From assembly GCA_039917935.1 (NCBI GenBank), contig JBDSIM010000033.1, positions 3,148 to 67,147 of the forward strand: a stretch of 64,000 bases of DNA. Reading direction: 5' to 3'. Of this stretch, positions 55,255 to 59,491 are shown piece by piece. Both the position numbers and the translations under genes were made by a program. Source of the stretch: Cyclobacteriaceae bacterium (GTDB lineage: Bacteria; Bacteroidota; Bacteroidia; Cytophagales; Cyclobacteriaceae). The notes beneath the pieces were generated by a model. The model was not told the origin of the DNA. It was given only the letters and a program-made list of their open reading frames with translations, and did no database searches. Position 1 is the first letter of the stretch, and each line of letters opens with the position of its first letter.

Positions 55255-56502
55255 TCAGGATAAGAACATTCTGTTCTGGTCAAGGCAATCACACAAATGT
55301 TTGTATACTACTGTGATATTTTCTTTTGACTGATCTTTACCCAGGGCAAGTACGATCCGTTGGGATAAAGTGCCCTCTTTCAGGATGACATCAATCTCAC
55401 GCTTCCAGGTTCCGACAGCATAATTGCCGGAACGAATTATCCGTTCGGTAATGTGTTGCCAAAGCTCTACGACACTGGCTGAAGTTCCTGGAAAACCAAA
55501 AACATTCAGATAGTCCTTATTATCAATGATGACTCCCTGTGCCTGTTCACTTGTTTTATCCAGCAACTGAGCAAGGAAATCAGTCCTCCATTTCATCTGG
55601 CTTTCAAAATCGAGAAATTTTCCACTAACGAATCCTTTAATGGTTTCAATTACCAAAGCAACGATGGCCATATCCGCCGTTGGGCACTCCTGAATATCCA
55701 TGATCCGGATTTCGATCGATCCTCTGTCAAAACGAGGAATGGCTCCGCGGGAATTTACCCATATAGGATTCAACGCCTGCCCCGGATCATACGGAGCAAT
55801 GTCAGATTTTATCTTTTCGTAAATGGTATTGAGGTAATTTCTTTTTGAAAAAACCGCTTCTGGTATGACCTTCCCCGTAATGGATGGAATTTTAGCCTGG
55901 TTTGTTTTGTAATATTTCAATCGTGTATCAAGCATACCAGTCAACTTCCCATCAAGAATGGGCGAGCTGGCGCACAACGCGGGCAGGAGTGGTAACACTA
56001 ACCGTACGGCTGCATGCAATTTCGCGAATTCCTCATCATCATAAAATGGAAGGTTCAGATGGGTGCTCTGCAGGTTAGACCATCCATGACCCCGGCAATC
56101 AAATATTTTATTGTAAATGTCATATACCTCGTTGTTTTCGTGAGGCCATATTTTAGTTTCCGTTGTCGGATCCATAAACGGGTGCGCCGCTGACGGCATG
56201 AGCATGGTATTGGACCCCGCCAGAATAGAATTGATGTGTCTGACATTTTCGGCGAACGCATTTTCCAAACCATTGAAGTTATTTTCGGGTTTGGTAGATT
56301 TTAGCTCCACAACATGCAGTACCAGTTCATTGGACCAAGTGACCATTCCATTTTCAAAATCACTCTGAAAAACACCCGTTTCATGTTTGATCAATTCGTC
56401 AGTGATAGGGCTTACTTTCAGGGTTTCACAGTCTACAAGCATGTACTCCAGCTCTATGCCATAGCCCTGGAATAAATGAAGGCGTGGGGGTTGCTGCATC
56501 AT
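55255..56502 (-). CDS. Glutamate-cysteine ligase family 2 (GCS2/YbdK-like carboxylate-amine ligase)
   Basis: GYGIELEYMLVD, NELVLHVVELK, HLNLPF and PRFDRGSIEIR motifs. Confidence 0.85.
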   Translation of the reverse strand: MMQQPPRLHLFQGYGIELEYMLVDCETLKVSPITDELIKHETGVFQSDFENGMVTWSNELVLHVVELKSTKPENNFNGLENAFAENVRHINSILAGSNTMLMPSAAHPFMDPTTETKIWPHENNEVYDIYNKIFDCRGHGWSNLQSTHLNLPFYDDEEFAKLHAAVRLVLPLLPALCASSPILDGKLTGMLDTRLKYYKTNQAKIPSITGKVIPEAVFSKRNYLNTIYEKIKSDIAPYDPGQALNPIWVNSRGAIPRFDRGSIEIRIMDIQECPTADMAIVALVIETIKGFVSGKFLDFESQMKWRTDFLAQLLDKTSEQAQGVIIDNKDYLNVFGFPGTSASVVELWQHITERIIRSGNYAVGTWKREIDVILKEGTLSQRIVLALGKDQSKENITVVYKHLCDCLDQNRMFLS

Positions 56503-57941
56503 TTATCGGATTTGATCTTACTCAAAAATACATCCATGATTGTAGAATACAATTTATCCTTGAGGATTTTATCTTCCGTACCTGACTCGATGTTCGGGTT
56601 ATCATTAATTTCGATAACATAAAACTTGCCATCCACTTCCTTCATATCAACCCCATAAAGGCTTTTGCCGATCAGGGATGTTGCTTTGAGCGCAGTTTTC
56701 AACAAACCCGAGGGCGCCTGATCCGCGGCAATGGTTTCCACATCACCATCCTTGTTGTTTTTAGAATTCCAGTTCACAATCTGCCAGTGCTCTGAGGCCA
56801 TAAAGTATTTACACACATAAAGCACCTGGCCGTCAATTGTACCCACCCTCCAGTCAAAAGGGGTTGGAAGAAACTCCTGAGCAATCAGCAACTCAGATTT
56901 CTGGAACATGGTGGAGCAGGTATGCTTAAACTCTTCGGCGTTGTTGATTTTATGAACACCTTTACTGAAAGCGCCATCCGGTTCTTTGAGAATAAATGGA
57001 AACCCCAGTTTCTCCGGCAGGTTTTTATAATTATCCTTGCCGATCACATGGGATTTAGGTGTCAGAATTTTATTGGCGTTCAGCAACTCATTGAGGTATA
57101 CCTTATTGGTACACTTCAGGATGGATTCGGGGTCATCCATAACAATCAGTCCCAAAGATTGCGCTTTCTTTGCAAACCGGAAAGTATGGTGATTAACGTA
57201 GGTTGTTTCACGGATAAACAAAGCATCGTATTGAATTAACTCCCCAAAATCATTTTTAGTGATGAGCTCAACGTTGAATCCTGCCTGATCTCCCGCCTTG
57301 ATAAATTTTTGAATTGCCTTTTCATCAGAGGGAGGATTTTTATCCTCCGGATTGATCAGTATGGCCAGGTCATACTTCTTTTTATCCGGCTTAACATCAC
57401 GCTTTCGTTCCAGGTAGCTTTCAGCGGCATCGTGAAGCAACGTCCTGTCTTCCTGTGGAACTTCACCTAAGCTTAAGGGCTTAATACTTTGCAGTACCCA
57501 TTTACTTTTCTTGGAGAACGTAGCGCTCAAAGAAGGCGCCTGTATATATTGGAATAATTGCTTGGCCAGTTTGTTAAGCGTTTCATACCGTGTAATCCCA
57601 AAATAAATATCAAACTCTACCTTGTCTGATTTTTCATTTTTGAAGGAAGTCTGAATCAGGTCATCAAAATCCTGGGAATCTTCCCGTAGTATTGAAGGAA
57701 AACGCAGATCCTGTATGGTACTGATCCCGGGTAATACCTTGTGTTTGCGAGCCTCCGCCAACAGCGATACATAGTAACCCAGGCTTTGGTATTGGTATGA
57801 CTTGCACAGGTTAATAACCTTAAGCCCTTTCGTTTGCTGATAAATTTCAGCCGTGATATACTTGGCCGGAGTTACCACCTCGACCTCCTCAAGGGTGAAT
57901 TTCCAATGATCCGGATTTTCTACAATAATTAATTTTTGCAT
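56499..57941 (-). CDS. RimK-like ATP-grasp ligase with an N-terminal RLAN domain
   Basis: INLCKSYQYQSLGYYVSLLAEAR (RLAN); KEPDG.FSKGV, QEFLPT.FDWRV and YGVDMK...IEINDNPN motifs. Confidence 0.88.
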   Translation of the reverse strand: MQKLIIVENPDHWKFTLEEVEVVTPAKYITAEIYQQTKGLKVINLCKSYQYQSLGYYVSLLAEARKHKVLPGISTIQDLRFPSILREDSQDFDDLIQTSFKNEKSDKVEFDIYFGITRYETLNKLAKQLFQYIQAPSLSATFSKKSKWVLQSIKPLSLGEVPQEDRTLLHDAAESYLERKRDVKPDKKKYDLAILINPEDKNPPSDEKAIQKFIKAGDQAGFNVELITKNDFGELIQYDALFIRETTYVNHHTFRFAKKAQSLGLIVMDDPESILKCTNKVYLNELLNANKILTPKSHVIGKDNYKNLPEKLGFPFILKEPDGAFSKGVHKINNAEEFKHTCSTMFQKSELLIAQEFLPTPFDWRVGTIDGQVLYVCKYFMASEHWQIVNWNSKNNKDGDVETIAADQAPSGLLKTALKATSLIGKSLYGVDMKEVDGKFYVIEINDNPNIESGTEDKILKDKLYSTIMDVFLSKIKSDK

Positions 57942-57983
57942 GAGGCTAAAGCCGATATGAGTTCCGTTTCCAAAATCATTGAT

Positions 57984-58700
57984 TTAAAATTTTTTAGGTT
58001 CAATTATTAATAAGTTAGCATCGTACGTTAAAATCCCCAGCATGATACTGTTGATAAGACGGGTAAATCCGACCGTATATACCTGGCCTTTACCCAAAGG
58101 GTTTGGTTCAACCGGGTCAGCCAGGTAAACACAATTTTTTTCCTCGTCGTATCCTGTGATCACCACGAAATGTCCGGCGGGTTCCCCCTTTATACTGTCG
58201 TAAATATCATACTGTGGTATCTCCCTTGCCGTGCTGTATAAATAGGTTGCACTTAACCCTGTAAGAATAGGAATATTACGCTTAAGGTAACCTTTGATGA
58301 GATCTTCGTCAAGCTCACCATAGTGCAGTTTGCCCCCTGACTCCAGAAACTTGATGTATGCCTGCGATGCAAAATTGAGTTTTCTTCTTTTACTCTTGAA
58401 CTCCATCTGTTCTTTCAGGAACTGAACAATTTTTTTTGAAGGGTGCTTAAACCAGGTGGGATCGAATACATTCAGGTTGTAGGTATAGATATGGGCCCTG
58501 TACCCGCGTTTCAAAGCGTGATTGCCTAATATCACGGCCATCGTTCCTCCGTTTCTTAGTTGCTTTACTTCTTTGATCACCTCTTTAAGGGGCACGTCGT
58601 CCTGGTAAAATGTATACAGGGCATGCAGGCAGGTCGGTCCGCAAGTGACATCGTCAGGCTGTGCCTGAATATCAAAAGCCAAATGAATTTCTTTGCGCAT
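57984..58700 (-). CDS. Peptidase C39-like papain-fold protein
   Basis: QPDDVTCGPTCL (Gln/Cys), GHFVVITGYD (His) and LADP (Asp). Confidence 0.85.
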   Translation of the reverse strand: MRKEIHLAFDIQAQPDDVTCGPTCLHALYTFYQDDVPLKEVIKEVKQLRNGGTMAVILGNHALKRGYRAHIYTYNLNVFDPTWFKHPSKKIVQFLKEQMEFKSKRRKLNFASQAYIKFLESGGKLHYGELDEDLIKGYLKRNIPILTGLSATYLYSTAREIPQYDIYDSIKGEPAGHFVVITGYDEEKNCVYLADPVEPNPLGKGQVYTVGFTRLINSIMLGILTYDANLLIIEPKKF

Positions 58701-59491
58701 TAAAAGTTCAACAGCTTCGTGATGAATAAATCAAAAACTTCAACAAGGATCAGTAAAATAATGATAAATTCCAGCATGTTGCTTTCGCGTTGATGGATTA
58801 TCTCGCGGAATACGGTAACGTTATTCTCAATGATGCGAAGTGTGTACTCTATCTCGCTAAAACGGACTTTCAGGTCAAAGTGCTTCATCAGTCCCTGTTG
58901 AAGTTTATCCAGATACTCATCTTCCCACGTTAGATCGGGCGCATCAAAAATATAAATATTTTCAGCAATATCATTTTGCGTATTGAGTGCCTTTCCCAGG
59001 AATCGGTGCATTTTATTTCGACTCACCTTGAGCTTGCCTGTCAGTTCCAGCTGATTGGAAAATCCTTTCACTTGCGTCAACAGATTTTCGCTGATACTGT
59101 GATAATAATCCAGGGCCACTGACTGGGCAAGGTTTAACATGGCAACGCGCATCACTTTTTCATCCATTTTCCCTACAATCGCTTCCGCAAAATTAAAAAA
59201 TGTTCCTTTGCTGGGATCGACGCGAATTTGAAATTCATCCCGTAACCACGATGGAACTTCATCTTTCATATAGGGGGTTACTGTTTTAATTCCGTACTTC
59301 ATTTCCTCCTCTTTATACCCGGAAAAAACAATGACCCCATAATTACAATAATACTGGTACTTGCCACTGAATCCGTAAAACAACTCCGAAGAGGAATCTG
59401 CAAGCGGTTTAATATCCAGAAACGATTTGATCCCTTTTATATCGATCTGATTAGAAACCAGAAATGCGTGTAGTTTAACAGTTTCTTCCAT
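58700..59491 (-). CDS. RMD1/DUF155-family protein
   Basis: YGVIVF, LAQSVALDYY, PDLTWED and FDLKVRF..IEY.L motifs, plus a C-terminal LEFIIILLILVE TM. Start placed at ATG 59491. The stop overlaps the C39 start (TAATG). Confidence 0.82.
   Translation of the reverse strand: MEETVKLHAFLVSNQIDIKGIKSFLDIKPLADSSSELFYGFSGKYQYYCNYGVIVFSGYKEEEMKYGIKTVTPYMKDEVPSWLRDEFQIRVDPSKGTFFNFAEAIVGKMDEKVMRVAMLNLAQSVALDYYHSISENLLTQVKGFSNQLELTGKLKVSRNKMHRFLGKALNTQNDIAENIYIFDAPDLTWEDEYLDKLQQGLMKHFDLKVRFSEIEYTLRIIENNVTVFREIIHQRESNMLEFIIILLILVEVFDLFITKLLNF

Follow-up and report, generated by a model that had tools for sequence, protein, structure and literature searches.

We present an analysis of a four-gene cluster in a stretch of 64,000 nucleotides (nt) from the genome of a Cyclobacteriaceae bacterium (assembly GCA_039917935.1, contig JBDSIM010000033.1, positions 3,148 to 67,147); the whole stretch is referred to below as the window. 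The cluster lies at 55255-59491 of the window and encodes a DUF155/RMD1-family protein, a C39-like papain-fold cysteine peptidase, an RLAN-RimK ATP-grasp ligase and a GCS2-family carboxylate-amine ligase. The last three enzymes form a genuine conserved cassette whose arrangement goes far beyond chance, since C39, RLAN-RimK and GCS2 follow one another in this order in 15 of the 29 Bacteroidota genera sampled and, within the window's own family, at 41 of the 59 loci that are informative. The window locus is an ordinary copy of this widespread, computationally predicted and experimentally orphan amidoligase cassette, without the FGase-family amidohydrolase gene found in other copies, and is not a new kind of system. 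The DUF155 gene is a family-specific syntenic neighbor, separable from the cassette and not a demonstrated component of it.

Close homologs carry source names that point to a soil member of Cytophagales resembling Chryseosolibacter or Ohtaekwangia. The first-pass annotation, made from the window alone, had placed four minus-strand genes at this locus, and open reading frames (ORFs) together with Pfam matches bear out all four. The DUF155 gene (58700-59491, 263 residues) matches PF02582 with an E-value of 5e-28 (98.7 bits against a cut-off of 27). Its start is taken to be the ATG at 59491 because orthologs of 261-262 residues align from residue 1 and longer ORFs would overlap the S1/P1 nuclease gene on the other side. 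The peptidase gene (57984-58700, 238 residues) matches PF13529 (5e-12) and PF03412 (1e-6), and more weakly PF09778 and PF11814. The RLAN-RimK gene (56499-57941, 480 residues) combines in one protein the RLAN domain (PF14401, E-value 1e-44; residues 27-171, nucleotides 57429-57863) and the ATP-grasp core (PF08443, 9e-10; residues 279-454, nucleotides 56580-57107). The GCS2 gene (55255-56502, 415 residues) encodes a YbdK-like protein matching PF04107 (6e-23, 82 bits against a cut-off of 21). The tight coupling claimed for these genes can be read directly from the sequence: the DUF155 and peptidase genes overlap by 1 nt in a TAATG at 58698-58702, a gap of 42 nt (57942-57983) separates the peptidase and RLAN-RimK genes, and the RLAN-RimK and GCS2 genes overlap by 4 nt in an ATGA at 56499-56502.

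The evidence for the cassette comes from a comparison of gene neighborhoods across a sample of 401 Bacteroidota genomes from 179 genera, which is the basis of all counts for the phylum given here. The RLAN gene was found in 49 of the 401 genomes (12%) and in 30 of the 179 genera. About 18 kb around one RLAN gene per genus was extracted for 29 genera, and the neighbors were compared by tblastn, clustering and Pfam; together with the window this gives 30 loci. The order C39, RLAN-RimK, GCS2 accounts for 16 of them (the window counted), and in 3 more RLAN-RimK is followed by GCS2 and FGase without a peptidase. GCS2 lies directly downstream of RLAN-RimK on the same strand in the window and in 18 other loci, and an FGase-family gene (PF05013) follows it in 12 of the 19 GCS2 loci, the window being included in the latter number. 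The remaining architectures are a stand-alone GNAT-RLAN-RimK fusion of about 650 residues (6 loci in 6 genera: L064, L065, L067, L068, L072 and L077), a GNAT-C39 (DUF3335) fusion accompanied by RimK (3 loci: L074, L078 and L079), RimK with a separate GNAT (1 locus) and RimK alone (1 locus). GNAT and FGase-type amidohydrolase genes, which the first-pass annotation had named as candidate partners, are indeed the usual ones. A GCS2 gene is found around RLAN-RimK in 19 loci and a RimI-like GNAT in 10, with both present in none and neither in one, which suggests that GNAT and GCS2 are alternative modules for one step. The GNAT of the sister variants scores 85.2 bits with the RimI model, whose cut-off is 86.4, and 27 bits with the Ngg model TIGR03103. 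Beyond the phylum, a Legionella adelaidensis record contains a RimK-GCS2-FGase run, and replicons of Azospirillum and Tistrella carry GNAT-C39 with RimK. No conserved gene for a protein target or precursor was found beside the cassette in the compared loci.

Neighborhoods composed of RLAN-RimK, GCS2, FGase, papain-like peptidase and GNAT genes were reportedly predicted in 2009 by Iyer, Abhiman, Burroughs and Aravind (Mol Biosyst 5:1636). The link between GNAT and DUF3335 is credited to Iyer et al. 2009 in a later paper (PMC10318531). The statement of the first-pass annotation that ligase and peptidase genes of this kind belong to computationally predicted, uncharacterised neighborhoods for peptide synthesis or tagging is correct. 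No experimental product or study of the cassette was found in the searchable literature with RLAN, DUF3335, RimK combined with FGase or carboxylate-amine ligase, or Legionella as subjects. With a presence in 12% of the Bacteroidota sample and relatives in Proteobacteria, including Legionella, the cassette is a real known unknown.

The position of the cassette within the window's own family was examined by scanning for loci with DUF155, which yielded 80 loci, nearly all labeled Chryseolinea, Ohtaekwangia or related Cytophagales. Fifty-nine of these have at least 5 kb downstream of DUF155 and are informative about cassette content. The syntenic frame across the family is S1/P1 nuclease < DUF155 > ... 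< anti-sigma < extracytoplasmic function (ECF) sigma < HemA, with the divergent nuclease and DUF155 pair kept in 67 of the 80 loci, and the ECF sigma and anti-sigma genes are syntenic with the cassette present or not. Behind DUF155, the informative loci have C39-RimK-GCS2 (21 loci), the same three genes followed by FGase (20), GCS2 only (3: L156, L157 and L169), an FGase-like gene only (2) or none of the four cassette genes (13). The family locus gains, loses and truncates the cassette while the frame stays fixed. FGase follows GCS2 in 20 of the 41 family cassettes and is absent from 21, and the nearest relatives of the window likewise lack it. Between DUF155 and the anti-sigma gene, L121, L146 and L160 have only an FGase-like gene, and L118 and L163 have nothing. 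Two further genomes of the window's family (L070 in G253 and L073 in G174) have a C39-RimK-GCS2-FGase cassette with a RimK identity of only about 55% and no DUF155 or S1/P1 nuclease gene within about 8 kb; on the RimK tree, L073 falls immediately outside the clade linked to DUF155, and the RimK of L070, which is split, is not included. The whole locus is present in the cultured relatives Chryseolinea serpens DSM 24574 and Pseudochryseolinea flava (L129 and L130), and natural relatives with no cassette or a partial one are available for comparison.

The first-pass annotation had treated DUF155 as an added component or target of the system and had asked whether its linkage to the enzymes recurs. 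The comparison does not support the proposed role, and the linkage does not recur outside one family. DUF155 is a single-copy gene in the window's genome and is found in 23 of the 401 phylum genomes, 18 of which have no RLAN gene; the two genes are found together in 5 genomes, compared to about 2.8 expected by chance. Only in the window's own family do they lie side by side, and no second linkage was found within Bacteroidota. The neighbors of DUF155 elsewhere in the phylum are unrelated (cyclophilin, creatininase, MscS-like channel, pseudouridine synthase, GcpE, AccD and AsmA), the gene is absent from the cassette loci of Legionella, Azospirillum and Tistrella, and it has no match in the plasmid collection. 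On the RimK tree the DUF155-linked copies form one clade (support 100/99) with a single nested loss in L098, a relative with the arrangement nuclease < C39 > RimK > GCS2 and no DUF155; the linkage is for this reason a single historical juxtaposition. To our knowledge DUF155 was not part of the neighborhood described in 2009. With DUF155 outside the system, the cassette consists of three or four genes.

The opposite interpretation is that DUF155 is a functional component, a CorA/Mrs2-like membrane protein. It would export or sense the product or be under its control, as a link, for instance, between an anionic glutamyl peptide and cation homeostasis. This interpretation draws on the TAATG overlap with the peptidase gene, on the spacing of 3-41 nt between the two genes in all 49 family loci measured, and on the structure model of DUF155, which is confident (AlphaFold2, AF2; predicted local distance difference test score, pLDDT, of 89.8) and has MRS2 (8ts1) and CorA as its best PDB matches. 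These matches are weak (E-value 2e-3, TM about 0.3); the protein has one transmembrane helix instead of the two of CorA and Mrs2, no GMN motif exists in the DUF155 alignment, and a PDB sequence search with DUF155 gave no match. The protein does have the conserved helix LEW(I/V)IIxLIxxE at its C-terminus, which carries two invariant glutamates, E241 and E251. Against a functional component, the linkage goes back to one evolutionary event, DUF155 stays where the cassette is absent (13 of the 59 loci) or where only GCS2 (3) or an FGase-like gene (2) is left of it, and L098 and all other lineages examined have the cassette but no DUF155. We consider this interpretation improbable. A narrower version, in which DUF155 became the cassette's partner at the membrane in the Chryseolinea/Ohtaekwangia family and either ties cation or osmotic homeostasis to the synthesis of an anionic glutamyl peptide or is itself under the control of the ligases, is hardly likely; if true, it would provide the first functional handle on bacterial DUF155/RMND1 proteins and on the orphan RLAN-RimK cassette. 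Since the spacing to the peptidase gene is short wherever both genes occur, co-transcription in the window's lineage is plausible. DUF155 is probably co-transcribed with the cassette here but probably works independently of it.

The catalytic residues of the two ligases are intact. In a comparison of 74 sequences, the RLAN motif NLCxSYxYQSxGYYVSLLAEARxH is strongly conserved, as are the nucleotide and metal motifs of the ATP-grasp part (LK.PD..FS.GV, DWR and IE.NDNPN), which matches structures of D-Ala-D-Ala ligases. The RimK family model TIGR00768 gives 2e-20 and 73 bits, under its cut-off of 143, and the protein has 480 residues with RLAN compared to the roughly 300-residue architecture of canonical RimK. 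In GCS2, the residues G15, E17, E19, H63, E66, H148, E264 and R266 are invariant among 57 homologs, the NCBIfam models for YbdK and GCL score 17-53 bits against cut-offs of 176-437, and PDB searches with the single sequence and with the 57-sequence profile gave no match. NCBIfam assigns both ligases at the family level only, far under the equivalog cut-offs. Reading of the translations by eye revealed no signal-peptide-like hydrophobic N-terminus on the peptidase, RimK or GCS2. The genome has a second ATP-grasp gene (G000:C135:24485-24886, minus strand), with a PF02955 glutathione-synthetase ATP-binding domain (73 bits) in a frame of 308 residues. A RimK-family gene of 529 residues with 39% identity to the window RimK stands alone in Pseudomonas aeruginosa NZ_CP133752.1 (L181), where it adjoins glutamate/aspartate ABC (ATP-binding cassette) transporter genes and ggt and has no peptidase or GCS2 partner.

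Both families have characterised members that act alone, namely RimK and YbdK of E. coli, and it could be argued that the window RimK glutamylates ribosomal protein S6 and that GCS2 is a housekeeping YbdK, with no joint product. S6 was considered as a RimK substrate and rejected: the S6 of this genome ends ...KKAEEDSKR and not in an acidic Glu-Glu, and because of this C-terminus its modification by the window RimK appears unlikely. Separate activities are also at odds with the conservation of the three genes in a fixed order in at least 15 genera, with translational overlap, and with the presence of RLAN and the sub-cut-off RimK family score. No RimB-type partner is annotated or seen nearby, although no search aimed at RimB was made. 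We regard stand-alone activities as extremely unlikely.

The absence of an E. coli-type GshA from the genome, in which the window GCS2 is the only GCS2 gene, brings up a different possibility, a glutathione- or phytochelatin-like thiol peptide. In such a pathway GCS2 would be a gamma-Glu-Cys ligase, RimK the second synthetase and the papain-fold enzyme a transpeptidase resembling phytochelatin synthase, and the combination of a GCL-type and an ATP-grasp ligase does mirror the two-step logic of GshA and GshB. The cassette is accessory, being limited to 12% of the phylum genomes and missing from close relatives, and this patchy distribution argues against a core redox role. Furthermore, the GCL and YbdK equivalog scores are far under the cut-offs, RimK-clade enzymes add Glu and not Gly, and phytochelatin synthase Alr0975 is found only at rank 10 of the structural matches of the peptidase, with TM about 0.43-0.46. 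A thiol pathway is very doubtful.

The papain-fold Gln/Cys-His-Asp residues, reported as intact in the first-pass annotation, are Q14, C20, H177 and D195, and all four are invariant across 72 homologs. The AF2 model of the peptidase is confident (pLDDT 87.9) and has a papain fold with a helical insert of about 90 residues. Its best matches among solved structures in a Foldseek search are the double-Gly C39 domains of peptidase-containing ATP-binding cassette transporters (PCAT; TMt 0.77-0.79); next come the pseudomurein endoisopeptidase PeiR and Alr0975. A PDB sequence search gave no match. The modeled fold is compatible with peptidase, isopeptidase or transpeptidase chemistry. The locus contains no ABC transporter gene or Gly-Gly precursor ORF of the C39 bacteriocin-type setting. 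Several metatranscriptome contigs that otherwise bear no relation to the window match it, at 85% likeness, just in the 42 nt at 58620-58661, which encode the peptidase active-site motif QPDDVTCGPTCL; these isolated matches reflect conservation of the motif across organisms.

The chemistry of related enzymes provides the framework for a proposed function. RimK-clade ATP-grasp enzymes add alpha-linked glutamate to a terminal carboxylate, as in S6, N-acetylaspartylglutamate (NAAG), F420 and methanopterin; GCS2 enzymes join a carboxylate, typically the Glu gamma-carboxylate, to an amine; and FGase-family enzymes hydrolyse N-acyl-glutamate. Two-step synthesis is known from glutathione (GshA and GshB), from NAAG (Asp N-acetyltransferase and RIMKLA) and from N-acetylglutaminylglutamine amide (NAGGN), made by Ngg, which combines a GNAT and an ATP-grasp domain. 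By analogy, GCS2 would cap or prime the substrate by activating a carboxylate, of which the Glu gamma-carboxylate is the likeliest, and joining it to an amine, RLAN-RimK would add at least one alpha-linked glutamate to the terminal carboxylate in the manner of its clade, and the papain-fold enzyme would trim the product by hydrolysis or transpeptidation. FGase, where present, may remove the N-acyl group or terminal Glu. The RimI-like GNAT that takes the place of GCS2 in the sister variants could be an alternative N-capping enzyme, transferring acetyl where GCS2 transfers gamma-glutamyl, as in dipeptides of the NAAG/NAGGN type. Such interchange of GNAT and GCS2 suggests that the product belongs to a class in which a capped amino acid is combined with glutamate.

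The product that we would favor over a protein tag, with a probability that we put just short of even, is a small cytoplasmic peptide that GCS2 begins, RimK extends and the C39-like enzyme turns over. It is favored because of the mutual exclusion of GNAT and GCS2 among the variants, the existence of stand-alone GNAT-RLAN-RimK fusions and the lack of a visible target or precursor gene. The first-pass annotation had described a circuit that writes with two ligases and erases with the C39-like enzyme, a description that may fit the genes; the product could equally be a small metabolite.

The main rival, credible if unlikely, is a tagging system for proteins or peptides in which RLAN would recruit a protein, GCS2 would add a gamma-linked residue, RimK would elongate an alpha-polyglutamate chain and the C39-like enzyme, with FGase where present, would erase it. 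The models for such a system would be PafA and Pup (PafA is a distant GCS2 relative), RimK and RimB acting on S6, and tubulin polyglutamylation. Characterised RimK does modify a protein, S6, and a partner protease, RimB, removes the tail (PMC11957791, PMC11957051). RLAN is an extra, highly conserved domain that could recruit a substrate, the GNAT of the sister variants is RimI-like, falling close to the RimI cut-off, and the structural neighbors of the peptidase cleave peptides or isopeptides. Tagging is made less likely by the lack of a conserved candidate target or tag gene in the compared neighborhoods and by the non-acidic S6 terminus (...DSKR), and the C-termini of the four proteins encoded here are not acidic either. 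The stand-alone GNAT-RLAN-RimK fusion, found in six genera, resembles small-molecule dipeptide synthetases.

Some information on expression is available from four soil RNA sequencing (RNA-seq) runs, which contain short contigs that cover parts of all four genes at 95-97% identity to the window. Among them are contigs that span the C39/RimK and RimK/GCS2 junctions; the DUF155/C39 junction is spanned by one contig, which comes from a run of unknown type. The contigs lend weak support to expression of the cassette and to co-transcription of the three enzyme genes in near relatives.

Taken as a whole, the explanation we judge best, and moderately probable, is that the locus is an orphan amidoligase cassette without FGase that makes and turns over a small cytoplasmic glutamate-containing peptide, and that the placement of DUF155 is family-specific synteny. 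Several observations weigh against it. A product, substrate or phenotype of the cassette is not reported in the searchable literature, and a protein substrate would be just as compatible with the additional RLAN domain and with a GNAT of the RimI type. DUF155 and C39 are spaced 3-41 nt apart throughout the measured family loci and overlap in the window, which leaves room for co-expression and some functional tie. Finally, the RNA comes from near relatives, the RNA status of the libraries is guessed, carry-over of DNA is possible, and the DUF155/C39 junction is not covered by the RNA-seq runs.

The spacer of 398 nt downstream of GCS2 (54857-55254, assigned to no strand) corresponds to the position of the FGase gene in relatives. 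Neither tblastn nor six-frame reading of the spacer detected an FGase remnant, and an FGase pseudogene at this position is rejected; the one FGase that the genome has lies on another contig and is canonical and high-scoring. Reading the six frames of the spacer by eye gave no obvious ORF resembling an acidic precursor, a reading that did not extend to ORFs shorter than 60 residues in the region upstream of DUF155, the gene interiors or the 42-nt gap. The genes for an ECF sigma factor and a membrane anti-sigma-like protein of 207 residues (53740-54856, plus strand) converge on the cassette. On the other side, an intergenic region common to the divergent DUF155 and S1/P1 nuclease genes (59492-59585, no strand) is presumed to hold the promoter of the four-gene unit. 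The S1/P1 nuclease gene (59586-60350, plus strand) is followed by a YdjC-family gene (60415-61467, plus strand), an order that is the same in several close relatives; no link of either gene to the cassette was seen.

The cluster can be compared with known systems at the level of its individual proteins and as a whole. In overall layout, DUF155 resembles the CorA/Mrs2 channels: an alpha/beta domain at the N-terminus, long helices, and a membrane helix at the C-terminus. It differs from them in the single transmembrane helix, the lack of GMN and the weakness of the match. The C39 domains of PCAT/AMS ABC transporters (PDB 6mpz, PCAT1, ComA) share with the window peptidase the papain-like core and the layout of the Gln, Cys, His and Asp residues; unlike them, the window peptidase stands alone, is cytoplasmic and has a helical addition of about 90 residues, and the identity is 13-14%. 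The polyglutamylation of S6 by RimK and RimB (rimABK) in E. coli and Pseudomonas (PMC4741518, PMC11957791) resembles the cassette in that a RimK-clade ligase and a protease belong to one operon and glutamate chemistry is expected in both. The cassette differs from it in the presence of RLAN, a papain-fold protease instead of a retropepsin, the second ligase GCS2, the non-acidic S6 and the sub-cut-off RimK score.

The GshA/GshB, NAAG and NAGGN pathways are similar to the cassette in that an ATP-grasp ligase acts after an enzyme that caps or primes, with a hydrolase for turnover, and their priming enzyme is either GCL-type or a GNAT, which is the same alternation as among the cassette variants. 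In contrast to these pathways, the cassette belongs to none of their families and has no amidotransferase partner. With respect to the neighborhoods predicted in 2009, the window copy is distinguished by its lack of FGase and its place behind a DUF155 gene, while the lack of a known product, the domain set, the common gene order and the partners (FGase, and GNAT in relatives) are all the same.

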